Positions 286-22,655 of a DNA stretch of 32,000 bases are shown one piece after another; position 1 is the stretch's first letter, and each line of letters opens with the position of its first letter. Location of the stretch: positions 174 through 32,173 of the forward strand of contig JAGVOT010000123.1 in assembly GCA_020052615.1 (NCBI GenBank), written 5' to 3'. Made by a program: the position numbers and the translations under genes. Below the pieces are notes generated by a model that saw only the letters and a list, made by a program, of their open reading frames with translations, was not told where the DNA came from and did no database searches. The DNA comes from Nitrospirota bacterium. GTDB lineage: Bacteria; Nitrospirota; UBA9217.

Positions 286-726
286 ATGAAGGTTCCGAAA
301 ACGAGCTTTATCTGCAGAACGCTGGCGATGCTCATCCTGCCGGTGCTCATGTTGGCATGCGCTGCTGCGAAGAAAACGACGGATTCCAGCGACCCCTTGG
401 CGGACCGCTGGGGTGTGAAGGTGCTGCAGGTCCGTCTGACCGCGGAAGGGCTCATGCTCGACTTCCGGTATCGGGTACTGGACGCTGAAAAGGCCGCTCC
501 CCTGAACAGCAGGGAATTCAAGCCTTACCTGATCGACGAAGCAACGGGCGCGCGGTTTCTCGTTCCCGAATCGCCCAAGGTCGGGGCGCTTCGCACCACC
601 CGTCCCCCCAAGGAAGAAAAGAACTACTTCATCATTTTCGTCAATCCGGGCAGGTACATAAAGGCCGGAAACAAGGTGACCGTCGTCATCGGCGATTTCA
701 GGGCCGAACACCTCGTCGTGGAGTGA
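286..726 (+). CDS. Small secreted protein, probable lipoprotein, function unknown
   Basis: ATG at 286 is preceded by AGGAG (274-278). The N-terminus MKVPKTSFICRTLAMLILPVLMLAC has a signal peptide with a lipobox-like Cys. The ORF-track start at 220 lies in the loop of the terminator hairpin, so I prefer the shorter form. I recognise no family. Confidence 0.6.
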   Translation: MKVPKTSFICRTLAMLILPVLMLACAAAKKTTDSSDPLADRWGVKVLQVRLTAEGLMLDFRYRVLDAEKAAPLNSREFKPYLIDEATGARFLVPESPKVGALRTTRPPKEEKNYFIIFVNPGRYIKAGNKVTVVIGDFRAEHLVVE

Positions 727-2830: not shown

Positions 2831-2862
2831 GCAGCACATCCTCGAGGCGAGAGTCCACTCCT

Positions 2863-5257: not shown

Positions 5258-5286
5258 GACACAATACCTAAGGAAAAGTATGAACA

Positions 5287-6012: not shown

Positions 6013-6068
6013 TGTCTATGGTTACCACGGTGAACCGAGAGACGCAAATGGTATCGTCCGATTGAATA

Positions 6069-6989: not shown

Positions 6990-6994
6990 TATCC

Positions 6995-7750
6995 ATGAAA
7001 GAAATGAACATGGCGAGAAAAAAAGTACTCGGAACTTCTTTTGACAGTATAGGAATGGCCGCGCTATTAAAGTCCGTGGATGAGGACATTCAACGGGGTA
7101 TTCGGTTCAGGATCGCTTTTATTAACCCGGAGTTTGTCGTTGAAGCGAGGGCGAATCCAAGATTGTCACGTTATCTGGAAACCTGCAGGTACAATCTGCC
7201 GGATGGGGTGGGGATTCTTTGGGCGTACAAACAACTTCATTCTCAGAAAATGCCGGAACGAGTTACCGGCACGGATTTCGTGCCGTCTGTTTGCCGGCTG
7301 GCGAGCGCAAGAGAGTACGCGCTCTTTTTTCTGGGCGGGGCACAGGGTGTGGCGGAAAAGGCTAAGCACACATTGGAAAAGATGGTCCCCGGGGTAAAGA
7401 TCGTCGGGGTCATGCACGGATATGATGAAAATTCTGAAGATATCGTAGGCATGATCAATAGGAGCGGCGCGGATATCCTCATGGTATGCACGGGCAATCC
7501 CCGCCAGGAGGAGTGGATCGAACGGCATTTTGAACGTCTGACGGCCAAGATGGTGTTCGGCAACGGCGGGGCACTGGATTTCTGGTCAGGGGCTGCAAAA
7601 CGAGCTCCCCAGTGGATGATCGGGCTGAACCTGGAGTGGCTGTACCGTCTGATGCAGGACAGAAGCTGGAAACGGCTGCGAAGGCAATTGCGGCTCTTGA
7701 CCTTTGTCCGGCTGGTCCTGATAGAGAAAGTGATGGCACGGAACCCATGA
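6995..7750 (+). CDS. WecB/TagA/CpsF-family glycosyltransferase (GT26)
   Basis: Family-typical stretches are FINPEFVVEARANP, PDGVGILWA, FFLGGAQGVAEKA, GNPRQEEWI and GGALDFWSGAAKRAPQWMIGLNLEWLYRL. 6995 is the first ATG after the sulfotransferase stop, and 7004 and 7010 are alternatives. The TGA overlaps the next ATG (ATGA at 7747-7750). Confidence 0.8.
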   Translation: MKEMNMARKKVLGTSFDSIGMAALLKSVDEDIQRGIRFRIAFINPEFVVEARANPRLSRYLETCRYNLPDGVGILWAYKQLHSQKMPERVTGTDFVPSVCRLASAREYALFFLGGAQGVAEKAKHTLEKMVPGVKIVGVMHGYDENSEDIVGMINRSGADILMVCTGNPRQEEWIERHFERLTAKMVFGNGGALDFWSGAAKRAPQWMIGLNLEWLYRLMQDRSWKRLRRQLRLLTFVRLVLIEKVMARNP

Positions 7751-9510
7751 GACCAAGAATGGCTGCAGTGTTCGTACGAATGGCGTTCATAATTGCTGTT
7801 TCGCTCTCCCTTGTCATGTTCGCTGCAAATGGAGCGGATCCAGGGCATATCCTGTCCTGTGCCCATGCAGCTCCGGCCGGGGAAAAGCCGTGGGTCGATG
7901 CCCGGTCCCATGCGTCCTTTTCGGCGGCCCTTGCGGCGATAGGAAGTGCTCCCGCGACCCTGCTTATCTCCGAACGGCAGCAGATATCCGTCAGCACGAC
8001 CGTTCCCTCGAACGTCGGCCTGCTCTTCCTGGCGGGCGGGTCGCTAGACCTGGCCGCGGGCGTCACGGCGACCATCAACGGCCCACTCCAGGTCGGTCTC
8101 TTCCGGGTCTTCGGAGGGGAAGGGGCGGTCGTCCTGGGGCCGGGTTCCGTGGTAGAGGTCCATCCCGAATGGTTCGGAGCGAAACCGGACGGAGCACAGG
8201 ACTCCGGACCGGCCATTCAGAAGTGCATTGATGCCTCGCCCGCGGGCACGGTCGTACGGTTCGCGGGAGGAACCTATCTAACCTCGGTCCCCATCGCGTT
8301 CCGACCGGACCGTTCGTACATCGGCAGTTCCCACAGCGGGAGCGGAACGGTCATCAAGCAGAAGGACGCAGCCCGCATTGCGCCGGCGATCTTCGTGTCG
8401 AAGGGATGGACCGACGGCGCATCGATAGCGGACAACCGCGTGATCTTCCGGGACCTGCTGCTCCACGGTAACAAGAAGAACAATCCGAACGCCGCGACCC
8501 ACGGCATCCTCAGCATGAACTACTATTCAGTGTTCGAGAACATTACCGTGTACGATGCGCCGGGTGACGGCATCCGATTCACCGACCGAAACGGCGCGAA
8601 CCGCGTCATCGCGAGTACTGCGGTCGGGAATAAGGTCCTCCACGGCAAGTTCATCAAGTGCGGCGGGAGCGGCATTCGGGGCGACAACAACGGCAGCGCC
8701 CTCACGGACGGGTATCTTATCGACAACGAGATCGGCAATTGCGGCGAGCATGGCATCTCTATAGAGCGGGGCGCGGGTTGGAAAGTCCTGGGCAATTACG
8801 TGTACGGCGTCGGCCGGAATGGCATCGTCCTCGACCGGGGCTGGAACAGCCAGATACTGGGAAACACTATTGACAATTATGGTCTGAGCGCGATCAAGGG
8901 AACCTATGCCGGGCTCGCGATGAACACGATCAGCGATAACGTTCCCTGTCTCATCAACGATAACATCATTCGTCTGCGCGATCCGGCCGAGGGTTCAACG
9001 TACCGCGGAATAACGGTCACTACGGGGGCCGGGACGAAGGAGGCCGAGGTCATCATTGCAGGCAACATCGCGAGCCTTGCCAAGAGGGGGACGTTCTTTG
9101 TTTCCGGCGGCAACGGTGGCGGGACCGCGCAACTGTCGGACAACCGCGTCTCCGGGGCGCTGGCCACCATCGCTCGAACGGGGGGCTCGATGGTCATCGT
9201 CCACCGGGACAACAGTTTCGATATTGCTTTCGCAAGGTTCCCCGGCAACGATCCGACCCCGTCCGTCCTGTCCGGTTCGCAGTACCGAACGATAAACACG
9301 GCTCCGACCGTGATCAGCGGCTTTGACGACGGTTATGACGGCCAGAGGATCGTTGTCGTCGTCGACGATGCATTCACGGCCATGGATTTCACGGGATCGC
9401 AGCTCTCAGGCAACGGTGGAGTTGATTGGAAACCCCGACGCGGCGACCACATGGAGTGTGTCTTTGACGGAAGCGCGTGGCACTGCATGACCAGCGGGAG
9501 GCCCCGGTAG
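7747..9510 (+). CDS. Secreted right-handed parallel beta-helix protein (pectate-lyase-3-like; putative polysaccharide glycanase, lyase or epimerase)
   Basis: Signal peptide MRPRMAAVFVRMAFIIAVSLSLVMFAANGA. The hallmark HPEWFGAKPDGAQDSGPAIQKCIDASPAGTVVRFAGGTYL is followed by repeated beta-helix coil signatures (NITVYDAPGDGIRF, GNKVLHGKFIKCGGSGIRG, IDNEIGNCGEHGISI, LGNYVYGVGRNGIVL, LGNTIDNYG). Confidence 0.7.
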   Translation: MRPRMAAVFVRMAFIIAVSLSLVMFAANGADPGHILSCAHAAPAGEKPWVDARSHASFSAALAAIGSAPATLLISERQQISVSTTVPSNVGLLFLAGGSLDLAAGVTATINGPLQVGLFRVFGGEGAVVLGPGSVVEVHPEWFGAKPDGAQDSGPAIQKCIDASPAGTVVRFAGGTYLTSVPIAFRPDRSYIGSSHSGSGTVIKQKDAARIAPAIFVSKGWTDGASIADNRVIFRDLLLHGNKKNNPNAATHGILSMNYYSVFENITVYDAPGDGIRFTDRNGANRVIASTAVGNKVLHGKFIKCGGSGIRGDNNGSALTDGYLIDNEIGNCGEHGISIERGAGWKVLGNYVYGVGRNGIVLDRGWNSQILGNTIDNYGLSAIKGTYAGLAMNTISDNVPCLINDNIIRLRDPAEGSTYRGITVTTGAGTKEAEVIIAGNIASLAKRGTFFVSGGNGGGTAQLSDNRVSGALATIARTGGSMVIVHRDNSFDIAFARFPGNDPTPSVLSGSQYRTINTAPTVISGFDDGYDGQRIVVVVDDAFTAMDFTGSQLSGNGGVDWKPRRGDHMECVFDGSAWHCMTSGRPR

Positions 9511-9513
9511 CGG

Positions 9514-10839
9514 ATGAAGACCATGGAGGGATCACGCATCAACTTCAACGTCCACGCTGTCTTCTGGCTTCTCCTTGCCTTTTACCCGGCAGCGCGAGAT
9601 TTTTTTTCCGGCGTATCGGCCGCCCAGCGCGTGATGCACGCGATGTTCCTTCTGTATATCGTCACGTGCATCATCATCCATGGGAACTACCGGATATCGA
9701 TGAGACGGAATATATTCGAACTGGCCGTGACGTACGGCCTTGTCACGATGATATACTACGGTTTGGTGACCCTGTACAACGGCATGCAGGTGACCGGTGT
9801 GGGGCTGGTTGATGTTTTCCGTCCGTTTATCTACCTGATATATTTTTTATTTCCGCTGTTGTTTCCCTTGACGGAGCAACAGTTCAAAAAAATCGTCACC
9901 CTGGTGCTTCTCCTAGGCATCGTACAGATCGCTTTCTCCCTGTTCGTGTATTCCAGCGCACTGTGGCCAATCGTGAATTTCTATAAAGGGCGCTTGAGCG
10001 ATGACATCCTGATGTTCCAGTTCTACCGGTGGTCGGGAACGTTCGGGTTCCCCTCTGATCTTGCTTTCTTTCTCTCTTTCATACTCTATTTTCTGCTCCT
10101 CTCCCTCCGATCGGGCCTGTATCCCAGAGCAGCGGTTTTCCTGGGCATCATGGCTGTTGTCGGAGCGCTGGTTATGACGCTCTCACGGGGCGGTCTGGGG
10201 ACCGTTGCCGTCATGATGATCTTCGTCATGGTGATGCTGAAGGGCACGCGGGGGGTGTTCTATGCGACTTTGGTGGCTGCCTTGTTTGCCATCGGCGTGT
10301 TCGGAGCCCTGCAGATGTTCGAGCGGCAGATGTTCGACATCTCATATATATCACAGTTATTGGAACAAGGGGTGGAGGCGAGAAGCGCGACACACCGGGT
10401 GACCGAACTGAATTTTGCATGGAAGACCATAGTCGAATCGTTTCCCATCGGCCTCGGCCCGGACAGGGCAAGGACCGAAACAGGACTCCGGGTCATCGAA
10501 ACCTTGTATGGACACCATCTGATCAAGTGGGGAATAGCCGGTTTCCTGCTCTATCTGGTCCCGGTCGTCTATTGCGCGACGATCGCCTACCGGCTCTGGA
10601 AAACGCATGAGGACAGGTTCATCGCCACGGCGACAGGAGCGCTACTCATTCTCATTATTTCCGTGCCGCTGATCTTCGGCATATCGAATACCATCAATGA
10701 TCGCTTCAAGGGACTGCCTTTTTACTATATAATGATGGGGTATCTTGTTATGCTGGACCAGCGCAGGCGGATGCGCGCCGGTGCGGCCGGGGACGCTGAC
10801 AGCATATTGCTGCGACCGGACGTACTGCCGGAGAGATGA
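9514..10839 (+). CDS. wzy: O-antigen ligase/polymerase family membrane protein (Wzy-like)
   Basis: 441-aa protein with about 10 or more hydrophobic segments. The central MTLSRGGLGTVAVMMIF stretch and the periplasmic-loop region with Arg/His (ARSATHRVTELNFAWK) are typical of the Wzy_C/O-antigen ligase domain. GC is lower than the flanks, as is usual for wzy genes. Confidence 0.7.
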   Translation: MKTMEGSRINFNVHAVFWLLLAFYPAARDFFSGVSAAQRVMHAMFLLYIVTCIIIHGNYRISMRRNIFELAVTYGLVTMIYYGLVTLYNGMQVTGVGLVDVFRPFIYLIYFLFPLLFPLTEQQFKKIVTLVLLLGIVQIAFSLFVYSSALWPIVNFYKGRLSDDILMFQFYRWSGTFGFPSDLAFFLSFILYFLLLSLRSGLYPRAAVFLGIMAVVGALVMTLSRGGLGTVAVMMIFVMVMLKGTRGVFYATLVAALFAIGVFGALQMFERQMFDISYISQLLEQGVEARSATHRVTELNFAWKTIVESFPIGLGPDRARTETGLRVIETLYGHHLIKWGIAGFLLYLVPVVYCATIAYRLWKTHEDRFIATATGALLILIISVPLIFGISNTINDRFKGLPFYYIMMGYLVMLDQRRRMRAGAAGDADSILLRPDVLPER

Positions 10840-10887
10840 AGAGATGACCGAATCAGCGGATCACCGTACAGGCAGGAGGAGAAGATA

Positions 10888-11601
10888 GTGCCGCTCTCTT
10901 ACGGAGGGCCGACCTCCTGCTACGGCGGATACGGCGTCCAAAACCGACTGCGAAAAGTGGATGCGGTCGCGCCGCTCTCGGGAATGACCATCCTGGACGC
11001 AGGCTGCGGGGACGGCCAGTACATCGATGAGCTGAAACGATACACCGGCGCCGTGCAGGGCGTCGAGATCGAGCCGGTGCGGGCTTCCCATGCGCGGCAG
11101 ATGACAGGCTGCAGGATCGACTCTTGCGACCTTTCGCAGCTGCTATTCGCTGACCGATCATTTGATCTGGTCTTCTGCAACGAGGTCCTGGAGCATACGG
11201 ACGATGATGTGAGTGTCTTGAAGGAATTTCACCGCGTCCTGAAGGCTGACGGACGATTGGCCCTCTACGTACCGAACCGTTGGTTTCCCCTTGAGACCCA
11301 CGGCGGTCGGATCTTCGGGATCGAGGTCGCACAGTTCCCGTTCCTGAACTATCTGCCGTTGACCGTCAGGAACCGGATCTGCAAAGCGGCGAGGATCTAT
11401 ACCCGGCGGAGCATCAAGGCCGCGCTCGGCCGCGCCGGCATGCGTGCGGTCCATGTGTCGTACATCTACCCGTCCTTTGACAGGTCCGAACGGACGCATC
11501 CGGGCATCGCCAAGGTCATGCGGTCACTGGCCGCTGCGCTGGAAAAAAGCCCGTTCAGGATGTTCGGAATATCGCTTTTCGTGTTGGCAGCCAAAGAGTG
11601 A
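10888..11601 (+). CDS. Class I SAM-dependent methyltransferase
   Basis: Motif I ILDAGCGDGQYI, then DLVFCNEVLEHTDDD and LKADGRLALYVPN. The start is GTG at 10888, after AGGAGGAG. The next in-frame Met is too close to motif I to serve as the start. Confidence 0.75.
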   Translation: MPLSYGGPTSCYGGYGVQNRLRKVDAVAPLSGMTILDAGCGDGQYIDELKRYTGAVQGVEIEPVRASHARQMTGCRIDSCDLSQLLFADRSFDLVFCNEVLEHTDDDVSVLKEFHRVLKADGRLALYVPNRWFPLETHGGRIFGIEVAQFPFLNYLPLTVRNRICKAARIYTRRSIKAALGRAGMRAVHVSYIYPSFDRSERTHPGIAKVMRSLAAALEKSPFRMFGISLFVLAAKE

Positions 11602-11626
11602 CCGCGGGAGTCCGCGAGGAGACGGC

Positions 11627-12313
11627 ATGGGCAGCATCGATTACACGGGCAGAGAAGGGGATGCGTATCACCGCATCAGGCACCGGGAGATCTTCGGCAA
11701 CGCCGAGCTTATCAGCGCCTGGGGCGCATATGCCGCAGCCGTCTATTTTTGCGGCGTGAAGCCCCATCACCGGATCCTGGAGATCGGGGCAGGCACGGGC
11801 ATCAACGTGGCCGGGGTGAGCAGGACGGCAGCGGTGACCGCCGTTGAGCCGGCCGAGGAGGCGCGAGAACACTGCAAGAAGCTCGGCATACGCTGCTTCC
11901 GGTCGCTAGAAGACCTGCCGGCCGGGCAGGCCTATGACTTCGTGCTGATGCGACATGTGCTCGAGCATGTCGAAGATCCCTGCGCCCTGCTCCGCCAGGC
12001 AAGGGAGCTCCTTGAGACGGGCGGCCGGGCGGTAATCGTCGTTCCCGTCGAATGGCCGTACAAACGGATCAATAGGCGGGATATCGACCACCATCTGTAC
12101 GGCTGGAACCGCCAGACCCTGTCGAACCTCCTGGAGTCCGGCGGTTGGCGGGTGGTGGAGTCCCGGATCAACTGGTATAATGGCAGAAGAATCTTCCTGC
12201 CGGTGTTCAAACGTGCGGGGGTAAACTGGTATATTCGCTGCCTTACCGTTCTTGGCCTGGTCATTCCGCACGCGGAGATCATCATGGTGGCGGAGCGCGG
12301 CGCCGCGCGGTGA
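11627..12313 (+). CDS. Class I SAM-dependent methyltransferase (second copy, different sequence)
   Basis: ILEIGAGTGINV (motif I), DFVLMRHVLEHVEDPCALLRQARELLETGGRAVIVVP. I prefer the ATG at 11627, since the ORF-track extension from 11444 overlaps the previous gene. Confidence 0.7.
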   Translation: MGSIDYTGREGDAYHRIRHREIFGNAELISAWGAYAAAVYFCGVKPHHRILEIGAGTGINVAGVSRTAAVTAVEPAEEAREHCKKLGIRCFRSLEDLPAGQAYDFVLMRHVLEHVEDPCALLRQARELLETGGRAVIVVPVEWPYKRINRRDIDHHLYGWNRQTLSNLLESGGWRVVESRINWYNGRRIFLPVFKRAGVNWYIRCLTVLGLVIPHAEIIMVAERGAAR

Positions 12314-12374
12314 AGGCAGGCACGAGGGTCGGCAGGTGTCGTGTTCCAGGGATGTATTTATCAGAGGAGGTCGG

Positions 12375-14543
12375 ATGATCGTGAGACGAATATGTTCGCA
12401 TGCGTGCGGTGTCCTGATGGTACTGGCGGCAAGCGTACTGCCGGCTGCCGCGCAGGTAAGTTCGATGCAGGCTGTTGATCCGCAGGCATCTCAGGCGTTT
12501 ATGAACGCCCTGTCGAAAGGCGATGTGCAGGCGATGCATAAGATGCTGGATGACCTGGGGAAAGCCAAGGCGCCGGTCAGCGCGGAACCCGCGCCCGTGA
12601 GGCCGTCGGAGCGCAAGCCGTCGCTGGTCGAGCGCACACTGTCCGGCAATCTGCCGACCGCCGATGCGCCGCTGCAGCAGTTCGGTTACGAGGCCTTTCT
12701 CAGGACGACCTCCACCTTCTTCACGCCGACCTCGGTCCCCGTCGGACCGGATTATCTTATCGGGCCGGGCGATCAGTTCACCCTCACGCTCTGGGGGACG
12801 GCCGAAGGCATCTTCATGGTGCAGGTCACCAAAGAGGGTGAGATCACCCTGCCGAAGGTCGGCGTCGTGTCAGTCGCCGGCCTGCGGTTCGGCGATCTTG
12901 AGAGGACGATCAGGCGCCATCTTCTCCGTTATTATTCGAATTTCAACCTCAGCGTCGCCATGGGGAACCTGCGGACCATGACGGTCTACGTGGTCGGGGA
13001 GGTTGCGAATCCGGGGAGCTACGCCCTGAGCTCGCTTTCCACGGTTTACAGCGCCCTGTTCGCGGCGGGCGGGCCTACCAAGCAGGGCTCGCTGCGGAAG
13101 ATCCAGGTGCTCCGCTCGGGAAAGGTCGTCAAGACCCTTGATCTATACGATTTTCTCCTGCAGGGTGACAAGAGCCATGATATCAGGCTGCAGCAGGAGG
13201 ACACGATCTTCGTGCCGCTCATAGGCGAGGTCGTCGGCGTCGCGGGTACGGTGTACCGTCCCGCGATCTATGAACTGAAGGGCGGGGAAACGATCGGCGA
13301 TCTGATCAGGACCGCCGGAGGGCTCATGCCGGTGACGCTCGGAAGCAGGCTGCAGCTCGCTCGCTTCGAAGACAACGAGCGCAAAGTGGTCAAGGATATC
13401 AAGGTTGACATGACGAGCACGGCTGCATCGAAGGACGGTGCGCTCTCCGACAAGGTCAGAGGCATGGATATGCTTACGATCCTTCCCATCTACGACAAGG
13501 TGTGGGAGATGGTGAGCCTGCGCGGCAGCGTTCAGCATCCCGGAGAATATCAATGGAGGACGGACCTGAAGCTGCGCGAGGTCATTTTGCTCGGACAGCC
13601 CCTGCCCACTGCAGACCTGCAGAAGGCCGACGTGATACGCATCAAGGACGGCCTCCGTGACCGCGAGGTCATCACCGTCGATCTCGCGGCCCTGCTTGCC
13701 GGGCCCGGGAGCGGGCAGGAGGACATCCTGCTGCGGCCCCGGGACCAGATCCGGGTGTATTCGGCCTATCGCGAGACGGAAGCGATCAGCCTGTCAGGAG
13801 AGATCGTCAGGCCGGGAACGTTCGAGATCCAGAGCGGAGAGCGTTTGAGCGACCTGCTGCGGCGGGCGGGTGGATTCACGGCCGAGGCTTATCCCTACGG
13901 CGCCGTCTTCAAAAGGCGGGATGTGAAGGACGCTCAGGACAAGAACCTGCGCGCATTCATCTCCAGGATGCAGTCGCAGATACTGCAGTCCGCGGCGGGC
14001 GGCACGGCAGCGGCGGTTTCGGCCGAAGAGGCGTCCTTTGCCAGGTCCGAGCTGGCCATGAACCAGGGGCTCCTGGAAAACCTGAAACGGATGCAAGAGC
14101 AGTTCGAGGGACGCGTTGCGATCACGTTGTCCGCGAACATTGAGCAATGGGCGGGAACGAAGGACGACTTGGTCCTGAAGGACGGCGACGCCCTGTATGT
14201 TCCCAAGCGTGCGCAGGAAGTAATGATCATGGGGGAGGTGCACAGCCCGGGCGCCCAGCTCTACCTTCCCGGACAGAAGGTGGGGCGGTATCTCGCTGCG
14301 ACCGGCGGGCCGACGACCTTTGCGGATAAAGAGCAGGTGTTCGTGATCCAGGCGAACGGCTATGCATTCAGCGGCGACTCACCCAGCGTCGGCGACATCG
14401 AGAACGTAGAGCTCCAGGCAGGGGACACGATCTTCGTGCCGCAGGACCTGGAGCGGCACGCTTCCATGCGGCTTACCAAGGATATCGTTGATATCATGTT
14501 CAAGACCGCGGTTATCATCGCGACAATCACCATATTGTTCTGA
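12375..14543 (+). CDS. wza: Outer-membrane polysaccharide export protein (OPX, Wza/KpsD-like) with multiple SLBB domains
   Basis: GAGGAGG precedes the ATG at 12375. The signal peptide is ...ASVLPAAAQ, not a lipobox. The Poly_export signature is PDYLIGPGDQFTLTLWGTAEG...ITLPKVGVVSVAGL. SLBB-like units repeat (VYVVGEVANPGSY, VAGTVYRPAIYEL, LRGSVQHPGEYQW, LSGEIVRPGTFEI, IMGEVHSPGAQLY). The C-terminus has a hydrophobic helix, FKTAVIIATITILF. Confidence 0.85.
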   Translation: MIVRRICSHACGVLMVLAASVLPAAAQVSSMQAVDPQASQAFMNALSKGDVQAMHKMLDDLGKAKAPVSAEPAPVRPSERKPSLVERTLSGNLPTADAPLQQFGYEAFLRTTSTFFTPTSVPVGPDYLIGPGDQFTLTLWGTAEGIFMVQVTKEGEITLPKVGVVSVAGLRFGDLERTIRRHLLRYYSNFNLSVAMGNLRTMTVYVVGEVANPGSYALSSLSTVYSALFAAGGPTKQGSLRKIQVLRSGKVVKTLDLYDFLLQGDKSHDIRLQQEDTIFVPLIGEVVGVAGTVYRPAIYELKGGETIGDLIRTAGGLMPVTLGSRLQLARFEDNERKVVKDIKVDMTSTAASKDGALSDKVRGMDMLTILPIYDKVWEMVSLRGSVQHPGEYQWRTDLKLREVILLGQPLPTADLQKADVIRIKDGLRDREVITVDLAALLAGPGSGQEDILLRPRDQIRVYSAYRETEAISLSGEIVRPGTFEIQSGERLSDLLRRAGGFTAEAYPYGAVFKRRDVKDAQDKNLRAFISRMQSQILQSAAGGTAAAVSAEEASFARSELAMNQGLLENLKRMQEQFEGRVAITLSANIEQWAGTKDDLVLKDGDALYVPKRAQEVMIMGEVHSPGAQLYLPGQKVGRYLAATGGPTTFADKEQVFVIQANGYAFSGDSPSVGDIENVELQAGDTIFVPQDLERHASMRLTKDIVDIMFKTAVIIATITILF

Positions 14544-14633: not shown

Positions 14634-15347
14634 ATGAATGCCCGTGACGACGAGATCAACCTGATGTACTACTGGAACGTTCTGTGGCGGCATAAGCGGC
14701 TCATTATCGGGCTGTGTGCCGTTTCCGTCGCCCTGGCCGCAGGCGTCAGCCTGCTCCTGCCCAAGTATTATCGGGCGGAAACCGTCCTGATCGCGACCGG
14801 TTCCGAAGCCGGCGGACTGGGAGCGGCGTTGTCCTCCATCCCTCTGGCGGGCGTGCTGTCCGTAGGCGCCGGGATCCAGACATCAACGGACAAGGTCCTC
14901 GTTGTCCTGAACAGCAGGACGATAGCGGAGCAAGTGATCACGCGGTTTGATCTCCTCCGGGTCTTCAATGAGGACGACTGGGACCGGCAGAAGGGGGCGT
15001 GGAAGGACCCCGCCGATCCGCCGCTTCTGCAGGATGCCGTCAAACGATTGACCGAGGATGTCGTTGATATCAGCACGAGCAAGGAAGGCGCGATCACCAT
15101 TTCCGTCCTTTGGAAAGATGCGAAACTGGCGGCAGACATTGCCAATCAGTACGTCGCATCGATGGCGCAGATGCTGAATGAGAAAGCGATCAACGTGACG
15201 GTCCAGGTCGTTGACCGGGCCGTGCCGGCGGACAGAAAGGACAGGCCGAAAACGGGGCTCATTGCGGCGCTTGCAGCCGTGACGTCGCTCTTTTGCGGCC
15301 TCCTTGCGGCGTTTGCTCTAGAAATTCGGAAAAGACATCATTCATAG
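14634..15347 (+). CDS. wzz: Short Wzz-type chain-length determinant (PCP) without a kinase domain
   Basis: The Wzz N-terminal signature is EINLMYYWNVLWRHKRLIIGLCAVSVALAAGVSLLLPKYYRAETVL, with a second TM at the C-terminus (LIAALAAVTSLFCGLLAAFAL). Only about 160 aa lie between the TMs. No Walker motifs. Confidence 0.7.
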   Translation: MNARDDEINLMYYWNVLWRHKRLIIGLCAVSVALAAGVSLLLPKYYRAETVLIATGSEAGGLGAALSSIPLAGVLSVGAGIQTSTDKVLVVLNSRTIAEQVITRFDLLRVFNEDDWDRQKGAWKDPADPPLLQDAVKRLTEDVVDISTSKEGAITISVLWKDAKLAADIANQYVASMAQMLNEKAINVTVQVVDRAVPADRKDRPKTGLIAALAAVTSLFCGLLAAFALEIRKRHHS

Positions 15348-15394: not shown

Positions 15395-15973
15395 ATGAAA
15401 AGAACCCCCTTTGCGGTCATTTTCTCTCTTACCCTGCTGCTGGTCGTCGGACCCGCCCCGGCATCGGCCGCGTCAAGCGCGAATTACAAGAGAACGATGG
15501 AGCGGTACTCCGTTCCCGATGTCACGCTGGTCAACCAGGACGGGAAGCGGGTGCGCCTGCTCGACCTGGTGGACGGCGGCAAACCGGTGGTGCTCGATTT
15601 CATTTACGGGACCTGCACGACCATCTGCCCTGTCCTGTCGGCGAACTTCACGAATTTCCAGAGAAAGCTGGGGGAGGGTGTCGGCAAGGTCCAGCTCGTT
15701 TCCATCTCGATCGATCCCGAGAATGACACGCCCATGGTCATGAAGAAGTACCTCAAGAACTACCTGGCGCGGCCGGGCTGGGATTTTCTGACCGGCAGCC
15801 GGGAAGACATCGACCGCGTCATGCGGGCCTTCAGCGCCTATGTGCCCAACAAGATGTCCCACTACCCGATCATGTTCCTGCGGGCGCCCCGCGGCGACCA
15901 ATGGGTGCGCATCTACGGACTGATCGGAACGAAGGACTTCCTGGCGGAGTACGAGAAGGTGGCGCGGCCATGA
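15395..15973 (+). CDS. SCO1/SenC-family thioredoxin-fold protein (copper chaperone / thiol-disulfide oxidoreductase)
   Basis: AAGGAG (15380-15385) precedes the ATG. Signal peptide ...APASAASS. The CxxxC motif is in VLDFIYGTCTTICP, with SISIDPENDTP and a downstream conserved-position His (KMSHYPIMFL). Confidence 0.85.
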   Translation: MKRTPFAVIFSLTLLLVVGPAPASAASSANYKRTMERYSVPDVTLVNQDGKRVRLLDLVDGGKPVVLDFIYGTCTTICPVLSANFTNFQRKLGEGVGKVQLVSISIDPENDTPMVMKKYLKNYLARPGWDFLTGSREDIDRVMRAFSAYVPNKMSHYPIMFLRAPRGDQWVRIYGLIGTKDFLAEYEKVARP

Positions 15974-17685
15974 AAACGAACTTCGTGATGCGATGGCGCC
16001 GTTCCCTGCGGGCCGGTGCCGCGGTACTGGTCATGCTGCTCCTGTCCCAATCCGCTCCAGGGGCATCGGACAACGACCCGCTCCTTGCGGGGATGGCACC
16101 GGCTGAGATCATGCGGCTTGGCGAGAACATGTACCGGAACGGGACCCTGCCTTCCGGCGAGCCGGTCCAGGCGGTTGTCCAGGGAGACATTCCCGTGGCC
16201 GGTACGATGTTCACCTGCGCGAATTGTCACATGCGGAGCGGCGTGGGCTCCATCGAGGGCACGATCATCACGCCGCCGACGAACGGCGCGGAGCTGTACC
16301 GGCCGAAGAAGCCCGGCGCGCGGCACAGCGAGGCCCAGGAGCAGCGGCGGCCCGCCCCATTCATCACGCCTCATGACCGCCCGGCCTATACCGACGCATC
16401 CCTGGGACACGTGCTCGCCTCCGGCATCGATCCAGCGGGCAGCGTTCTTGACCCGATCATGCCGCGGTACCTGCTCGAACCGCGCGACCTTGCCATCCTG
16501 GTCCACTACCTGAAGAACCTGTCCGCGGACCTCTCGCCGGGGGTAAGCGAGGAGACGCTCGACTTCGCGACGATCGTGGCAGGGGACGTCGACCCTGCCG
16601 ACCGCGACGCCATGCTGATGCCGCTCAAGCTGTTCATTGCCAATCGCAATGCCCGGGTGCCGCTCTTCCAGGGGAGGAAAAGGACCGGGATCTTTGCGGA
16701 GGAAATGGACCTGTCCTACCGGAAGCTTTCCCTGTCGGTCTGGGAGCTCACGGGAACGCCCGATACCTGGCGGTCGCAGCTCGAAGCGTACTACCGGAAG
16801 AAGCCGGTGTTCGCTGTGCTCGGGGGGATTGCAAAGGGGGATTGGCTGCCCATTCATGCATTCTGCAATCAGAACGGCATACCCTGCATCATGCCGTCGA
16901 CCGACAAGCCGGTTCTTTCCGAAGATAACTGGTACGTGCTGTATCTGTCGCGGGGTCCGGCCCAGGAGGGTGAATCAGCAGCGCGCTTTCTCCATATGCG
17001 AAAGGACCTTGCGGGAGATGCGGGCCGGATCGTGCAGGTCTACCGGGACCGGGGGAAGGGCCCGGTCATTGCCCGGGCGTTCCGGGAGACCCTGTTGGAG
17101 ATGGGCCTGCTGCCGCCGCGCGAGGTCGTCGTGAAGGCCGGCGCCCCCCTCGATGCCGGTCTGCTGAAAGGCATGGGACCGGGTGTTGTAGCGGCTCTTT
17201 GGCTGGATGCCGACGATCTCGCCCGTATGCGGTTCGCCGATAAACGGTCGGGCCCGGCGACGATCCTGGCGTCCGGCGGGATGCTCGGCGAACGGCTGAA
17301 CGCGGTGCCCGATCAGGTTCGCCGGTCAACGTACATCACCTATCCCTACCGCCTGCCGAAGGACCGCAAGGCGACTCATCAGGTCGTGACCACATGGCTG
17401 AAGCAGAACCGTATTCCGGCATCGAACCTCAGGATCTCCGCGGACGTCTACGCAATGGGAAGCATGCTGACCGACGTGTTCATGCATATGAAGCGCAATT
17501 ACTACCGCGATCACTTTCTCGATGTCTTCGATATGCAAAGGGACCAGACCTACACGGTCCTGAACTATCCGCGCCTCAGCTTCGGCCCCGGGCAGCGCTA
17601 TGCGTCGAAAGGATGCTACCTGGTCCAGCTGACGGAAGGACCTGCCCCCGAACTTGTTCCGATGACCGACTGGGTCGCCCATTGA
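15970..17685 (+). CDS. Secreted mono-heme c-type cytochrome domain fused to a type-I periplasmic-binding-protein-like domain
   Basis: The ATG at 15970 overlaps the Sco TGA (ATGA). Signal peptide ...SQSAPGASD. A single CANCH heme-binding motif has a candidate distal Met in DPIMPRYLL and the class-I-like ending LAILVHYLKNL. The remaining ~400 aa (FATIVAGD..., VFAVLGGIAKGDW..., NGIPCIMPSTD, VQVYRDRGKG..., AALWLDADD) read like a LivK/amide-binding-type PBP. The domain call is by eye only. Confidence 0.65.
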   Translation: MKTNFVMRWRRSLRAGAAVLVMLLLSQSAPGASDNDPLLAGMAPAEIMRLGENMYRNGTLPSGEPVQAVVQGDIPVAGTMFTCANCHMRSGVGSIEGTIITPPTNGAELYRPKKPGARHSEAQEQRRPAPFITPHDRPAYTDASLGHVLASGIDPAGSVLDPIMPRYLLEPRDLAILVHYLKNLSADLSPGVSEETLDFATIVAGDVDPADRDAMLMPLKLFIANRNARVPLFQGRKRTGIFAEEMDLSYRKLSLSVWELTGTPDTWRSQLEAYYRKKPVFAVLGGIAKGDWLPIHAFCNQNGIPCIMPSTDKPVLSEDNWYVLYLSRGPAQEGESAARFLHMRKDLAGDAGRIVQVYRDRGKGPVIARAFRETLLEMGLLPPREVVVKAGAPLDAGLLKGMGPGVVAALWLDADDLARMRFADKRSGPATILASGGMLGERLNAVPDQVRRSTYITYPYRLPKDRKATHQVVTTWLKQNRIPASNLRISADVYAMGSMLTDVFMHMKRNYYRDHFLDVFDMQRDQTYTVLNYPRLSFGPGQRYASKGCYLVQLTEGPAPELVPMTDWVAH

Positions 17686-17715: not shown

Positions 17716-19263
17716 ATGAGCATATTTCTGAACCGCTGCCGTCCGATCGGGCTATTCGGTCTTTTCCTGGTCGTGTTCCTGCTGTCCGCCGCCTTTCCTG
17801 CCCGGTCATCCACGTACGTCGGCCTCGATGATGAAGCACCGGTGTATACCATTCTGTCTCGGCTGGAGGCGGAGGGGATCGTCAACTCCGGTCTGCTTGC
17901 CACCAGGCCGATCAGCAGAAATGCCGCGCTGCGGCTCCTTCTGGAGGCGGAACAGAAAGCCGACGGGCGAAGCGAGTTCATCAAGGGTCTGATCGTTGAA
18001 TTGCGGCGCCGTTTACGACCGGAGCAGCCGGGGGCGGACGGACCGAAGATCCGGGGTTCTGTTTATGCGCGGTATGTGCACACGGACGCCGCGGTGCGGA
18101 CCCTTTCCTATCCCGGAGCCGACCGTGAACTGATGCAGGCGCTGAATGAGAACAATGAAGGCGATCTCTACGAGCCCGGGTCCAACTATCGGTTCGGTCT
18201 TACCGCCCATATCGACGATGCCGGACCATTTTCACTTTTTCTCAATCCCGAACTGAGAGCGGACGACGAGCATGAGCAGGGTGTTCTGAGGACCGGCTAC
18301 GGGGTCATCGGATTCTCCTGGATCGATATTGTCATAGGCAAGGATGCCCAGTGGTGGGGGCCCGGCCATCACGGCGCCCTGTTGCTGTCCAGTAACGCGG
18401 AACCGCTGACGATGATCAAGTTCACGGGGCCGGTGCCGCAGACCCTTCCGTGGATCCTGAAGTATCTCGGACCGTTCCAGTACAATGTGTTCTTTTCACA
18501 GCTCGAGAAGGACCGGAGCGATTATTCCAGGCCCTATTTCTGGGGAATGCGACTCGATTTCAAGCCGCATCGGTACATCGAGATCGGCCTGGAGAGGACG
18601 GCGATCCTGGGTGGACAGGGAAGGCCGACCGACGCCGGGACCTGGCTTGACAGCGCGCTCGGGAGCAGCGAACACGACGCTTCCGGCAATCCCGGCGATC
18701 AGCGCGCAGGCGCTGACGTGAAGATAACGCTTCCATTCCCATGGCAGCCGATGCAGATATACTGGGATCGGGCAGGAGAGGAAAACAGGCAGGAAAATTG
18801 GCGTCTCCCCTATAAATACGCAGATATCTACGGTCTCTATCTTCCCTCGTTGATGGGATTCGAGCGTATCGACCTCAGGGCGGAATATTCAGAAAACAAA
18901 TTGAACAAACAGGCCTACGTATGGTATACCCACGGAACGTACACTGCGGGATATACGTACCAGGGTATGATCATGGGCCATCACATGGGCACGGAATCGC
19001 GTGATCTCTTTCTGGAATTGGCCTGTCTGGTTCCGGAAAAAAACGCCAGGATCTCATTGTCCTATGATCAGGAAACGCATGACCTGGCTGGTCCGGTGAG
19101 CGAGACGGTGAGTGAATGGTCGCTCAGCGGAAGATCACTGGTATCGCAGCAGATCGAGGTCTCGGCTTCGCTCGGGTACGGAAGCATCGAGAATCCCGAA
19201 AACGAGGCCGGTCCGCCCGCAAGGGTTTATGAATTTGACATGGTCGTTCGGTATGTGTTCTAG
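17716..19263 (+). CDS. wzi: Capsule-assembly Wzi-like outer-membrane protein
   Basis: Signal peptide ...SAAFPARSS. The N-terminal helical motif is YVGLDDEAPVYTILSRLEAEGIVNSGLLATRPISRNAALRLL, which I recall from Wzi-family proteins. About 480 aa of alternating beta-strand-like sequence follow, ending ...MVVRYVF with an aromatic C-terminus typical of OM barrels. Confidence 0.6.
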   Translation: MSIFLNRCRPIGLFGLFLVVFLLSAAFPARSSTYVGLDDEAPVYTILSRLEAEGIVNSGLLATRPISRNAALRLLLEAEQKADGRSEFIKGLIVELRRRLRPEQPGADGPKIRGSVYARYVHTDAAVRTLSYPGADRELMQALNENNEGDLYEPGSNYRFGLTAHIDDAGPFSLFLNPELRADDEHEQGVLRTGYGVIGFSWIDIVIGKDAQWWGPGHHGALLLSSNAEPLTMIKFTGPVPQTLPWILKYLGPFQYNVFFSQLEKDRSDYSRPYFWGMRLDFKPHRYIEIGLERTAILGGQGRPTDAGTWLDSALGSSEHDASGNPGDQRAGADVKITLPFPWQPMQIYWDRAGEENRQENWRLPYKYADIYGLYLPSLMGFERIDLRAEYSENKLNKQAYVWYTHGTYTAGYTYQGMIMGHHMGTESRDLFLELACLVPEKNARISLSYDQETHDLAGPVSETVSEWSLSGRSLVSQQIEVSASLGYGSIENPENEAGPPARVYEFDMVVRYVF

Positions 19264-19542
19264 TGCAGATGAATGCAAAAAAAGAGGCTTTCGGTTTGCC
19301 TGGCTGATTGGTTTTACGTAATATTCAAAATAGGCCATTCATTTTGAGCTTTGCAAGGAGGGTGTGATTGCTCAACATGTTGAAAATATAGAATAAATGT
19401 ATCAATAACATTGGTATTCATTTTGCTTAATAAAACGCGGGAACAGACCTTTTCTGATATCTTTAAAGCTTGCTGCAATAATTCATTCATGACATGACGT
19501 CCTGTCTTCCATCCGATCGGCGGTTGCTTGAAGGAGTTCACG
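19264..19542. promoter_or_regulatory. AT-rich intergenic region upstream of wecA (probable promoter/regulatory region)
   Basis: This is the only long non-coding gap in block A. A spot count of line 19381-19440 gives 15/60 G+C (25%), against 60-70% in the flanking genes. It contains the imperfect inverted repeat GAATAAATG-N9-CATTggTATTC (19391-19419). AAGGAG (19531-19536) precedes the wecA ATG. Confidence 0.4.
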
Positions 19543-20619
19543 ATGCATTTGATCACGGCCTTCCTCATAGGATTTTTTCTCACAACAGTAATTACTCCGA
19601 AGGTCATCAGGTTCGCTATAACCTGTAATTGCCTGGATATCCCCGGCGGAAGACGGACCCACAAAAAGGTCACGCCCCGCTGGGGCGGTTTTGCCTTCTT
19701 TATCGGCGTATTGCCGGTCCTCTTCGCGGTAGGTTCCGGCAGGATGCTGATCTCCTACGTTGCGGCATCAGCTGTCATGATCGGCATCGGAATGCTTGAC
19801 GATCGAAAGCAACTGCCCTACACGGTCAAGTTCGGCGGCATGCTCGCGGCAGTTGCGATCGTCATCTTCGGCGGCAACGTGGTGGTCCATACCATAGGCG
19901 ATTACGGGCCCTGGGGGACGGGCGACCTTGGCCGCCTCAGTATTCCCTTTACGTTCTTCGGGATCGTCGGGGTAACGAATGCAATAAACCTGCTGGACGG
20001 TCTCAACGGCCTTGCAGGAGGTGTGTCCCTTCTTGGATTTTTATTCATGGGGATCGCCGCCGCCCATGGCGGGAACATGCCGCTTGCGATCGTTTGCTTT
20101 GCTTTCGTAGGCGCGCTCGCTGCGTTCCTCCGGTTCAACTTCCCTCATGCCAGGGTCTTCATGGGAGACACGGGGAGCCTGTTCCTGGGATTTTCTCTTT
20201 CTGTCGTCGCCGTAGTTCTTACCCAGAACAGGCACCATCCGGTGGATCCGATGCTGCCCGTACTCGTGCTTTTCATCCCCATTTTTGACGCGCTTCGCGT
20301 CATGTTCGTCAGGATGTTGAACCGGAGGAATCCGTTTCATGCGGATAAAAGCCATCTGCATTATTTACTCGTTCGACGAAGGGTCCCTTTCCCGATTACC
20401 GTTGCCTTTCTCTGGGCTTTGACCGCGGTGTTCGGCATTGCAGCGCTCATCATGATCGATGAACCGTCATTTTCTTTTCTCGAGATCGCGGTGTACGGTG
20501 CCGTCATTATGGGTTTGCTGACGGAAGCGCTCGTTTGGAGGCAGAAGAAGTACGCCCCGTTCGACGGCGGGGTGACGAGGCGACGGCTTCTCAGCCCGCG
20601 AGGCACCTTCCTGCTGTAA
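19543..20619 (+). CDS. wecA: Undecaprenyl-phosphate sugar-1-phosphate transferase, MraY/WecA family (initiating glycosyltransferase)
   Basis: NAINLLDGLNGLAGG and FMGDTGSLFLGF motifs in a polytopic membrane protein. I prefer the ATG at 19543, which has a good SD, over the TTG at 19528. Confidence 0.85.
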   Translation: MHLITAFLIGFFLTTVITPKVIRFAITCNCLDIPGGRRTHKKVTPRWGGFAFFIGVLPVLFAVGSGRMLISYVAASAVMIGIGMLDDRKQLPYTVKFGGMLAAVAIVIFGGNVVVHTIGDYGPWGTGDLGRLSIPFTFFGIVGVTNAINLLDGLNGLAGGVSLLGFLFMGIAAAHGGNMPLAIVCFAFVGALAAFLRFNFPHARVFMGDTGSLFLGFSLSVVAVVLTQNRHHPVDPMLPVLVLFIPIFDALRVMFVRMLNRRNPFHADKSHLHYLLVRRRVPFPITVAFLWALTAVFGIAALIMIDEPSFSFLEIAVYGAVIMGLLTEALVWRQKKYAPFDGGVTRRRLLSPRGTFLL

Positions 20620-20713
20620 TTTCACTGATAGTCCCTGAAGAGCGAGACCACGGGATGGGCACCATGACGCGCTGGTCGTCATTCCGCGCGCAGTGGCTGC
20701 CCAACGAGAATTA

Positions 20714-21664
20714 ATGATGAACGATGAACTGTTCCAGAACACGCGGTTTCTCCACAGCCTTTTTGATTCTATCCCGTCCATGCTTTTCATCATGGACGAT
20801 GATGTGCGGGTGATGCATCTGAACGCCGCGGCGCGGAAATTCAACGGCTTCGACAGCCTCCATAAACTTCTGGACAGCGGCGGTCAGGCCCTGAACTGCA
20901 TCAATGTGGCTCACGATACCAATGCCTGCGGAAAGACCGAGAACTGCAGGAAGTGCCTTGTTCGGCGGTCGGTGGGCCAGGCGGCGCGAGGGCGAACGAT
21001 ATTTCGCGAGGCCACCAAGATGGAGCTCGTGGATAAACGAGGTCACCGCGATGTGCATTTCATGGTAACGGCGTCGCCGTTCATGCACGAAGAGCGGTCG
21101 CTCATCCTTCTGATCCTGGAGGACATTTCCGAGCTCAAACGGACCGAGGCAAAATTGCAGAACATGAACGAACTGCTCGAGCGGCAGGCCACCACGGACA
21201 CCCTGACGGGGATCTACAACCGGCTGCGCTTCAATGAGCTTCTTCTGCAGGACGTCGATGAGGCGAAGCGATATCGCTTTCCGATCTCCCTGATCATGTT
21301 CGATATCGACCATTTCAAGAAGGTAAATGACAGCTATGGTCATCTGGTCGGGGACCGCGTCCTGAAGGAGATCGTGGCGGTCGTCAGCGCGAACATCCGG
21401 ACGGTGGACGTCTTTGCGCGATGGGGAGGGGAGGAGTTCATGGTCCTCTCCAAACATCTGGACCATGAGCAGATGCGGACGGTGGCGGAAAAGCTGCGGC
21501 ATGCCGTGGAATCGGCGAGGCTCGATGGATGCCACCCCGTTACCTGCAGCTTTGGCGTCACCCAGCTTGCGGACCATGACACGATCGAGAACTTTACGGC
21601 GAGGGCCGATGCCGCGCTCTATCGCGCCAAGAACGAAGGAAGGAACCGGGTCTGCGTCGCCTGA
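20714..21664 (+). CDS. Diguanylate cyclase (GGDEF) with an N-terminal PAS-like sensor domain carrying a four-Cys cluster
   Basis: The catalytic domain shows LTGIYNRLRF, MFDIDHFKKVNDSYGH, an active-site GGEEF (21425-21439), an RTVD (RxxD I-site) five residues upstream, and YRAKNEGRNRV. The N-terminal region LHSLFDSIPSMLFIMDDDVRVMHLNAAA...ILEDISELK is PAS-like, with a C-x9-C-x5-C-x2-C cluster at nt 20897-20956. Confidence 0.85.
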   Translation: MMNDELFQNTRFLHSLFDSIPSMLFIMDDDVRVMHLNAAARKFNGFDSLHKLLDSGGQALNCINVAHDTNACGKTENCRKCLVRRSVGQAARGRTIFREATKMELVDKRGHRDVHFMVTASPFMHEERSLILLILEDISELKRTEAKLQNMNELLERQATTDTLTGIYNRLRFNELLLQDVDEAKRYRFPISLIMFDIDHFKKVNDSYGHLVGDRVLKEIVAVVSANIRTVDVFARWGGEEFMVLSKHLDHEQMRTVAEKLRHAVESARLDGCHPVTCSFGVTQLADHDTIENFTARADAALYRAKNEGRNRVCVA

Positions 21665-22583: not shown

Positions 22584-22601
22584 GGAAGAAGGGGAGGGAA
22601 C

Positions 22602-22633: not shown

Positions 22634-22655
22634 GTGAGCAGACAGTTACGGTGTC

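Follow-up and report, generated by a model that had tools for sequence, protein, structure and literature searches.

Introduction

The mofA-mofB-mofC operon of Leptothrix discophora encodes MofC, a protein named in 2000 and putatively a cytochrome c (He et al. 2017, PMC5566968). [quoted passage not shown] For example, Rubrivivax A210 has mofA-mofB-mofC together with a metallochaperone gene (PMC8218464), the ompB cluster of Geobacter sulfurreducens includes GSU1394 (OmpB) and the MofC homologue GSU1397 next to the SCO1/SenC gene GSU1398, and Sideroxydans lithotrophicus ES-1 has three tandem MCO genes, a mofC-like gene and a copper chaperone gene (both PMC5566968). This article deals with a pair of this kind, a sco gene and a mofC-like gene, in a stretch of 32,000 nt from a Nitrospirota bacterium (GenBank assembly GCA_020052615.1, contig JAGVOT010000123.1, positions 174 to 32,173 of the forward strand; the whole stretch is called the window hereafter), where the two genes stand amid genes for polysaccharide export, and it discusses whether they serve secreted oxidases or the polymer.

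A preliminary description of the window could match the domain combination of the second protein to no characterised system. This view has to be revised, since the architecture and the Sco pairing fit the MofC-like proteins (PMC5566968; Rubrivivax A210, PMC8218464), and the combination with its Sco partner is of a described but uncharacterised kind. The favoured reading, to which a probability of roughly 0.6 is given, is that the pair constitutes an accessory module of a secreted MCO cluster and does not belong to the machinery for polysaccharide export. What is new is the arrangement, that is, a variable Wzx/Wzy locus inside an MCO cluster in an uncultured Nitrospirota lineage, with parallels elsewhere.

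Sco and Its MofC-like Partner

Sco proteins bind Cu(I) and Cu(II) through a CxxxC motif and a histidine, and they are also thiol-disulfide oxidoreductases. The Sco protein of the window matches the Pfam family SCO1-SenC (PF02630) with an E value of 3.5e-22 and 79.3 bits against a cutoff of 22.8, so its thioredoxin-fold domain is above threshold, and a signal sequence is visible at the N-terminus of the translation. The motif CTTIC occupies aa 74-78 (nt 15614-15628) and the histidine is His156 (nt 15860-15862). In an alignment of tblastn matches to the Sco proteins which partner MofC-like proteins (235 rows, duplicates kept, about three rows per locus), Cys74 and His156 are conserved at 95% or more and Cys78 at about 99%, and the partner proteins form a distinctive subgroup in which TCTTICP and KMxH are near-invariant. 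The Sco-type protein with signal peptide, CTTIC and conserved histidine that had been described before is therefore borne out. No cox genes were found among the window genes scanned by Pfam, and the context of this Sco protein points toward MCOs rather than toward CuA sites and the assembly of cytochrome oxidase.

The stop codon of sco and the start codon of the mofC-like gene share the tetranucleotide ATGA, which agrees with the translational coupling noted earlier. Cytochromes of the c type mature in the periplasm. The signal peptide of the second protein is followed by a single haem motif, CANCH, at aa 83-87, and by DPIMPRY, which includes the candidate methionine ligand, at aa 161-167. Among 24 homologues, which are 44-83% identical to the window protein, C83, C86, H87, M164, P165 and Y167 are invariant, so the haem motif proposed in the preliminary description is conserved together with its ligand. 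In the C-terminal part, W258, W267, H296, W321, Y322, R451, R513, D525 and K547 are also invariant, the last of these within an invariant motif of the MofC-like family, SFGPGQRYASKGCY.

The LivK-like type-I periplasmic binding protein (PBP) fold which had been suggested for the C-terminal part also stood. AlphaFold2 on the 24-member alignment gave a model with a mean predicted local distance difference test score (pLDDT) of 80.6 and a predicted template modelling score (pTM) of 0.78, and confidence is low only around the haem site, as one would expect of a model that lacks haem. When this model was compared with the PDB by Foldseek, residues of about 190-571 (about 380 aa) matched type-I LivK/LivJ-like substrate-binding proteins (SBPs) with E values of 5e-13 to 2e-10 at 11-15% identity. 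Peripla_BP_6 of Pfam is below threshold on the 571-aa protein (E 5.7e-4, 20.1 versus 31.7 bits), and Pfam gave it no cytochrome c match. Among the sequences of the PDB, no relative of MofC came up in a profile search, whose best match (E 0.048) is an unrelated protein. In precomputed Pfam assignments, PF13458 is found in most homologues and PF00034 in a few.

A protein search with the 571-aa protein gave 397 matches among the 8,000 candidates scored, which are full-length and 43-84% identical and come from Nitrospirota, Desulfuromonadales/Geobacteraceae, Desulfobulbaceae, Holophagae and Thermodesulfovibrio. The source records name them "ABC transporter substrate-binding protein", "cytochrome c" or "hypothetical protein", and the MofC-like reading corrects the routine mis-annotation "amino acid ABC transporter substrate-binding protein".

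Genes Which Accompany the Pair

The surroundings of the pair were surveyed in about 165 loci (denoted by L numbers), 85 of them non-redundant and 80 from metagenomes, by tblastn and clustering of open reading frames (ORFs), and recurrent families were named via Pfam and NCBIfam. A scan of one genome per GTDB species gave 300 genomes with a MofC-like relative, for which 80 loci were fetched, and a metagenome scan gave at least 556 stretches with relatives, from which 80 loci, many of them short, were sampled and serve as a second context sample only; among the matches listed, no metagenome relative is closer than 54%. Sco is encoded within the locus in 78 of the 85 non-redundant and 70 of the 80 metagenome loci, and the same two-gene pair recurs in hundreds of genomes, far beyond chance.

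An MCO-type gene, that is, tandem MCOs of about 400 aa or giant OmpB-like MCOs with FG-GAP repeats, lies near the pair in 43/85 loci, and the metagenome loci include 11 with a tandem-type MCO and 5 with an OmpB-like one. An MCO or the NosL/FtsX module described below is near the pair in 60/85 loci and in 21 of the 31 metagenome loci that measure 8 kb or more. Wzi occurs close to the pair in 6/85 and 1/80 loci, so the pair is no regular neighbour of Wza-Wzc/Wzz-Wzi export systems; together with L069, which has Wza only, export genes are found near it in 8 of about 165 loci. Recurrence beside wza, wzz or wzi, which the first description had led one to look for, is thus real in that it is seen in several MofC clades, yet it is confined to these eight loci. 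The same survey divides the earlier idea of a redox- or copper-linked module tied to polymer: the copper or redox link stands, but the polymer is probably not the client, the regular neighbours being MCO and copper genes.

The pair is also repeatedly accompanied by a giant SdrD_B/beta-helix protein, an S8 peptidase, the small lipoprotein p172, sigma-54 activators and FKBP isomerases; FKBP is present in 7/85 loci, and those checked are from Geobacteraceae or from delta-/Pseudomonadota metagenome-assembled genomes (MAGs). At least eight loci (L017, L100, L117, L128, L165, L058, L161 and L136) have one recurrent order, namely giant protein, three MCOs, p172, S8, Sco, MofC-like protein, small protein, FtsX, ABC, 336-aa membrane protein (and NosL), in which the S8 gene stands directly upstream of Sco-MofC. 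The closest loci to the window clade in a neighbour-joining tree without support values, L088 and L089, have the order MCO-MCO-(p172)-Sco-MofC.

NosL is a copper chaperone. A Nitrospirota MAG and a Desulfuromonadales MAG agree in the order NosL, a protein of about 105 aa, an FtsX/MacB-type permease, an ABC ATPase, the 336-aa membrane protein, Sco and the cytochrome-PBP protein, and one of these two loci has MCOs just downstream. This module, whose permease is also LolC-like, flanks Sco-MofC in about a third of the loci (L001 4997-9204, L003 5668-9308 and about 50 others) and is absent from the window; no published description of it was found. NCBIfam has no family for Sco, the MofC-like protein, Wzi, p172, the 336-aa membrane protein or the small protein. 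In L089 (7240-16249), MCO-MCO-p172-Sco-MofC abut a type II secretion gene set, and secretion of OmpB in Geobacter is reported to depend on the type II secretion system (Mehta et al. 2006, as cited in PMC5566968).

Two further components deserve mention. p172 has 493 homologues with E<1e-5 and no Pfam or NCBIfam model, and it adjoins Sco-MofC or S8 in 10/85 and 13/80 loci. Its AlphaFold2 model is an Ig-like beta-sandwich (pLDDT 86) without a significant PDB match, and a role as copper chaperone was considered and is unsupported, since p172 has no conserved Cys or His and no structural match. In addition, an FG-GAP-like repeat of about 48 aa, GDxPVTGDWxGDGxTDxGVFRxGxWxLDxNGxxxWxxGDxxFRFG, is shared by the C-terminus of S8 (window 2110-2827, five copies), the MCO of about 960 aa (L171 4994-7882), a 579-aa protein (L171 2949-4688) with its 617-aa counterpart, and giant secreted proteins (end of L003 13199-18979). 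As a speculation, this repeat may be a common anchoring or sorting domain or a matrix-binding tag.

A Polysaccharide Locus within an Oxidase Cluster

The preliminary description regarded the pair as embedded in the polysaccharide export module, and the left end of the window reverses this picture. A frame-3 fragment there aligns end to end with residues 912-962 of a 962-aa Cu-oxidase_2 protein of the related locus L171 (64% identity, E 8e-17), so the window opens inside an MCO gene, and the terminal FG-GAP-like repeat of this fragment is the same repeat as that at the C-terminus of S8. The genes for p172 and S8 follow, and 12.5 kb of polysaccharide genes separate them from Sco-MofC. Since the recurrent order puts MCO, p172 and S8 directly before Sco-MofC, it is the polysaccharide block that is nested in the oxidase cluster, between an oxidase/p172/S8 part and a Sco-MofC-Wzi part, as judged from gene order.

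The oxidase genes themselves are seen in two relatives reached via p172 orthologues, L171 and L170, the latter lying 4.9 kb upstream of L005 on a contig common to both. Both have the order giant protein, MCO (386 and 403 aa in L170 and L171, respectively), MCO (437 and 434 aa), FG-GAP protein (617 and 579 aa), MCO (1076 and 962 aa), p172, S8 and polysaccharide genes, and on the L170/L005 contig the array goes on to Wza-Wzz-Sco-MofC-Wzi-GGDEF. This contig, the closest relative, is labelled Nitrospirota class UBA9217. The MnO2/UBA9217 label of its MAG raised the question of an affinity to the Mn-oxidising "Ca. Manganitrophus", which was rejected: Manganitrophaceae belong to the class Nitrospiria, whereas UBA9217, a class of its own, is anaerobic and has Wood-Ljungdahl and dsrAB genes (PMC11033732).

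Identity to the orthologues in L005 is 83% for MofC, 80% for Sco, 75% for GGDEF, 67% for Wzi, 59% for Wza and 55% for Wzz, and identity to L170 is 72% for p172 and 63% for S8. Within the array, conservation is highest for Sco and MofC, which are therefore under selection and not decaying passengers; they also share the high guanine + cytosine content at third codon positions (GC3) of the core genes. The order wzz-sco-mofC-wzi is kept in relatives at 70-84% identity (L005, L087). The biosynthetic centre differs in gene content in L170/L005 and is barely alignable in L171 (Wzx 22%, sulfotransferase 29%). Within it, the genes for the TylF-type methyltransferase and the sulfotransferase (5287-6989, + strand) have a GC of 0.46 and a GC3 of 0.52, compared with about 0.6 and about 0.75 elsewhere; this atypical composition and the swapped centre resemble the outcome of an exchange of cassettes, and sulfation and methylation of the polymer are probable. 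With its conserved flanks and swappable centre the locus looks capsule-type, and the flanks in this case appear to hold oxidase genes and Sco-MofC as well.

The distances given in the preliminary description and the outer-membrane polysaccharide export (OPX) gene upstream agree with the coordinates and Pfam: 47 nt lie between the wzz stop (15347) and the sco ATG (15395), and 30 nt between the mofC-like stop (17685) and the wzi ATG (17716). From the MCO fragment through wzi, all genes share the + strand and no gap exceeds 127 nt. In a scan for promoters and terminators the counts stayed at background, and neither the 47-nt nor the 30-nt gap has a promoter-like or terminator-like site. These results are compatible with co-transcription, without being decisive, and the pair is probably co-expressed with the export genes.

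Proposed Role of the Pair

MCOs need four coppers, and the client of the pair is most likely an oxidase, served by copper loading or by redox chemistry, rather than the polymer. According to the favoured reading, Sco and the MofC-like protein would both be exported by Sec, and Cys74, Cys78 and His156 would be the copper ligands of Sco. Electrons might then pass between Sco and the haem domain of MofC, by which CxxxC would be kept reduced or the Cu(II)/Cu(I) state would be set, so that copper could be loaded into apo-oxidases within the periplasm ahead of their secretion. The PBP domain would be a docking or ligand-gating domain. If the pair is transcribed together with wza-wzz-wzi, the maturation of the oxidases would coincide with the production of matrix. 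Banci and colleagues (in 2011, in J Biol Inorg Chem) reportedly described that a cytochrome c domain passes electrons to the Sco domain to which it is fused. A precedent for a dedicated factor is CutF of Rhodobacter capsulatus, a CxxxC protein required for maturation of the MCO CutO (PMC8456105).

Several points weigh against this proposal. SenC is dispensable for CutO in R. capsulatus (PMC8456105). In the literature, no functional test of any MofC-like protein or Sco partner was found, and no paper naming GSU1397 or GSU1398 was found besides PMC5566968. The role given to the PBP domain is a guess, and the many aromatic residues that are invariant in it might serve to bind a genuine small ligand. 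Just 52 MCO codons lie within the window, and the MCO linkage for this genome rests on the orthologous contigs. Furthermore, the conserved position of the pair between wzz and wzi, with short gaps free of promoter and terminator sites, would look alike if its role were linked to export. Finally, membership among the MofC-like proteins would follow from the published description together with architecture, partner and context rather than from direct alignment to MofC of L. discophora or to GSU1397, and G. sulfurreducens is not among the best 120 matches of a protein search made from the Pelotalea chapellei member.

The pair is worth attention for its distribution. Metal-cycling anaerobes and microaerophiles, among them Geobacteraceae, Desulfobulbaceae, Holophagae, Nitrospirota and iron oxidisers, encode it in hundreds of genomes, and it is placed here in a much larger, conserved and largely undescribed cluster of giant protein, tandem oxidases, p172, S8, Sco, MofC, FtsX-type ABC module and NosL, whose members are candidates for the supply of copper or electrons to secreted MCOs.

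Alternative Explanations

MofC may be mainly an electron carrier for the oxidases, its haem either accepting electrons from the MCOs or donating electrons to them, which would link extracellular metal oxidation or reduction to the periplasmic electron pool, with Sco being just a copper chaperone. This was the original proposal for MofC (Brouwers et al. 2000, as cited in PMC5566968) and is compatible with the favoured reading; as the principal function it is possible but rather unlikely. The invariant haem motif and Met ligand speak for it, and so do the hosts, which are mostly anaerobes or microaerophiles (Geobacteraceae, Desulfobulbaceae, Holophagae, Thermodesulfovibrionia and UBA9217) in which O2-dependent oxidase chemistry is awkward; moreover, Yu et al. 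noted that energy conservation by MCOs would call for a partner cytochrome c in the periplasm (PMC9040806). However, the oxidases have repeats for secretion or anchoring, and their predicted location is extracellular, whereas the signal peptide of MofC is its only export signal and offers no way across the outer membrane. A 400-aa PBP domain with one fused haem would make an odd shuttle, and the near-obligate, often translationally coupled partner of MofC is Sco and not an oxidase gene.

The second alternative keeps the earlier idea and gives the pair a working role within the polysaccharide system. It would be a module for ligand binding or sensing with a redox or copper link, in which the PBP domain recognises the polymer or one of its precursors, and it would influence export, modification or the anchoring by Wzi. 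The order wzz-sco-mofC-wzi is kept at 70-84% identity despite differing biosynthetic genes, the gaps are tight and free of promoter-like or terminator-like sites, and the PBP domain has many invariant Trp, Tyr and Phe, as is often the case in sugar-binding sites. In addition, wzi lies directly beside the mofC-like gene in different arrangements (the window, L005, L087, L034 and L026/L134). In L034 (Desulfuromonadales) the order is S8 fragment, p172, Sco, MofC, Wzi, Wza, Wzz, methyltransferase, Wzx, Wzy and methyltransferase, all co-directional; in L026 and L134 (Nitrospirae) the pair is convergent with Wzi-Wzz-Wza, whose products are 52-64% identical to those of the window; and in L086 and L069 Wzi or Wza comes after OmpB-like genes (Wzi 2 kb after one such gene, and Wza after two, respectively). 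MofCs adjacent to Wzi or Wza belong to at least three separate clades of the neighbour-joining tree, which has no support values. By a rough estimate with assumed copy numbers, Wzi occurs about once per 0.3 Mb of surveyed flank, compared with one or two copies per several-Mb genome, that is, about once per 2-4 Mb.

Against this stand the survey counts, in which export genes are near the pair in few loci and MCO or copper genes in most. No literature link between MCOs and Wzi or Wza was found in a search for papers combining them, and no described Wzx/Wzy or Wza-Wzc-Wzi system is known to have a Sco or cytochrome component. The array of this lineage also holds oxidase genes, so its linkage to polymer genes fails to separate the readings. 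The adjacency to export genes is rare yet recurrent and usually comes with oxidase genes. Such a pattern is more readily understood if the oxidase system as a whole is linked to a surface polymer than if Sco-MofC take part in export themselves, and a working part in the polysaccharide system is accordingly improbable. As a separate observation on L026 (3814-6122, from Nitrospirae GWC2_56_14), identity to the window is 69% for Sco, 55-64% for Wzi/Wza and 45% for MofC, which may reflect a different MofC paralogue or fast evolution.

The database annotation of the 571-aa protein as the SBP of an amino-acid or branched-chain ABC importer, which has the names of the homologues and the LivK/LivJ-like fold in its favour, is very improbable and was rejected, because no partner importer is present (no genes for a LivHMGF-type permease or ATPase in the window or the surveyed loci, and as sole recurrent ABC system one of the FtsX/MacB/LolC type, which is not known to use such binding proteins), the resemblance to solved SBPs is remote and the Pfam score below threshold, and the fused haem domain and the obligate Sco partner are left unexplained.

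A Possible Link between Oxidases and Matrix

The favoured assignment of the pair to the oxidases leaves room for a wider idea. The nested polysaccharide locus and the repeated adjacency of Wzi or Wza suggest an oxidase-matrix link, which bears on the formation of Mn and Fe oxides and on extracellular electron transfer. Tentatively, and with the balance tilted against it, the polysaccharide and the oxidase system may be one functional unit, a dedicated metal-redox matrix. In such a matrix, Wza/Wzz would export a polymer with sulfate and methyl groups, and Wzi would keep it at the surface. This polymer would carry the MCOs, the S8 peptidase and the FG-GAP protein via the tag of about 48 aa; Sco-MofC would load or poise the oxidases in the periplasm, and the PBP domain might sense a polymer precursor, coupling both. 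If this were true, the serotype-like swapping of the polysaccharide centre would be scaffold variation of an extracellular enzyme layer, and such a layer would belong to anaerobic, uncultured members of the Nitrospirota, with parallel cases among Desulfuromonadales.

Features of the Window

The features are collected in Table 1. As listed, the two methyltransferase ORFs at 10888-12313 overlap by 158 nt, and the Wza ORF (TTG start at 12252) overlaps the second of them by 62 nt; the real starts are probably downstream, perhaps, for Wza, at the Met before IVRRICSH. The PAS-GGDEF gene directly after the array raises the possibility of control of the matrix/oxidase cluster by cyclic di-GMP. The region 21762-31553 appears unrelated to the Sco-MofC finding, and its order is syntenic with L005 and L087.

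Table 1. Features of the 32,000-nt window, with the Sco-MofC pair first (positions are those of the window)
Feature	Position	Strand	Description	Basis
sco	15395..15973	+	192 aa; Sco/SenC-family periplasmic thioredoxin-fold copper chaperone	PF02630 match and motifs
mofC-like gene	15970..17685	+	571 aa from the ATG within the ATGA overlap; signal peptide, mono-haem cytochrome c domain, type-I PBP domain	
sco/mofC-like stop-start overlap	15970..15973	+	ATGA; translational coupling	Sequence
Parts of the MofC-like protein	16216-16230; 16459-16461; about 16537-17682	+	CANCH; Met164; PBP domain	Alignment, AlphaFold2, Foldseek
MCO gene, 3' end	3..158	+	Last 52 codons, gene off the left window edge; FG-GAP-like repeat at the end	Alignment to the L171 MCO
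p172	286..726	+	Small lipoprotein (lipobox ...LAC)	Recurrent member of MofC/MCO clusters
S8 peptidase	737..2830	+	Secreted, subtilisin-type; five C-terminal FG-GAP-like repeats	Pfam Peptidase_S8, E 2e-48; repeats in translation
Variable polysaccharide biosynthesis block	2824..12313	+	Wzx, glycosyltransferase GT1, TylF-type O-methyltransferase, sulfotransferase, WecG, beta-helix protein, Wzy, two methyltransferases	Pfam
OPX/Wza	12252..14543	+	Wza-type outer-membrane polysaccharide export protein	Poly_export and SLBB domains
Wzz	14634..15347	+	Short Wzz-type polysaccharide co-polymerase (PCP), 237 aa, without kinase domain	Pfam Wzz, E 3.7e-10; weak GNVR match
Wzi-like protein	17716..19263	+	Outer-membrane beta-barrel (capsule assembly lectin family)	PF14052, E 1e-83
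GT4	19528..20619	+	WecA/MraY-type initiating phosphoglycosyl transferase; 264-nt gap before the gene	PF00953, E 7e-41
PAS-GGDEF	20693..21664	+	Diguanylate cyclase	Pfam; 75% identity in L005
Right third of the window	21762-31553		FdhD (-); conserved 247-262-aa protein of unknown function (-); outer-membrane MetA-pathway-like protein; CbiM/CbiQ/CbiO Ni/Co energy-coupling factor (ECF) transporter; OmpA; riboflavin synthase, RibBA	

Comparison with Known Systems

The flanking genes of the polysaccharide locus come from the families of group-1-type Wzx/Wzy capsule export (Wza, Wzc/Wzz, Wzi). With LivK/LivJ (type I, Peripla_BP_6) the MofC-like protein shares the two-lobe fold (Foldseek E 5e-13); it differs from them in its identity of 11-15%, the N-terminal haem domain, the lack of an importer partner and its own C-terminal motif.

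The fusions and partnerships of Sco with cytochrome c mentioned above and CutF-CutO (PMC8456105) resemble the pair in having a CxxxC periplasmic factor for one copper enzyme, or a haem c domain as redox partner of Sco. In the window, the haem domain is instead on a separate, translationally coupled protein which also bears a PBP domain, and the dispensability of SenC for CutO is a further difference.

With MofC and the MofC-like proteins of MofA/OmpB clusters the window shares the cytochrome c and PBP domains, the adjacent SCO1/SenC gene and the cluster of extracellular MCOs, function in these having been proposed from sequence only. Compared with MofA-MofB-MofC, the window has no FKBP isomerase (no MofB-type FKBP domain was found in the window genes scanned by Pfam), and its oxidase genes lie about 15 kb from the pair, across the polysaccharide locus. 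The G. sulfurreducens cluster is also without a MofB-type FKBP (He et al., PMC5566968). There the same pair stands beside a giant OmpB-type oxidase, and the surveyed Geobacteraceae loci L062, L020, L068 and L076 have OmpB-like protein, FKBP, Sco and MofC-like protein, whereas the clade of the window has tandem MCOs of about 400 aa and an MCO of about 960 aa with FG-GAP-like repeats, p172, S8 and the inserted polysaccharide block. The cluster of Sideroxydans ES-1, for which the paper mentions no p172, S8, FtsX-ABC, NosL or polysaccharide genes (PMC5566968), fits the recurrent order of giant protein, three MCOs, p172, S8, MofC and Sco.

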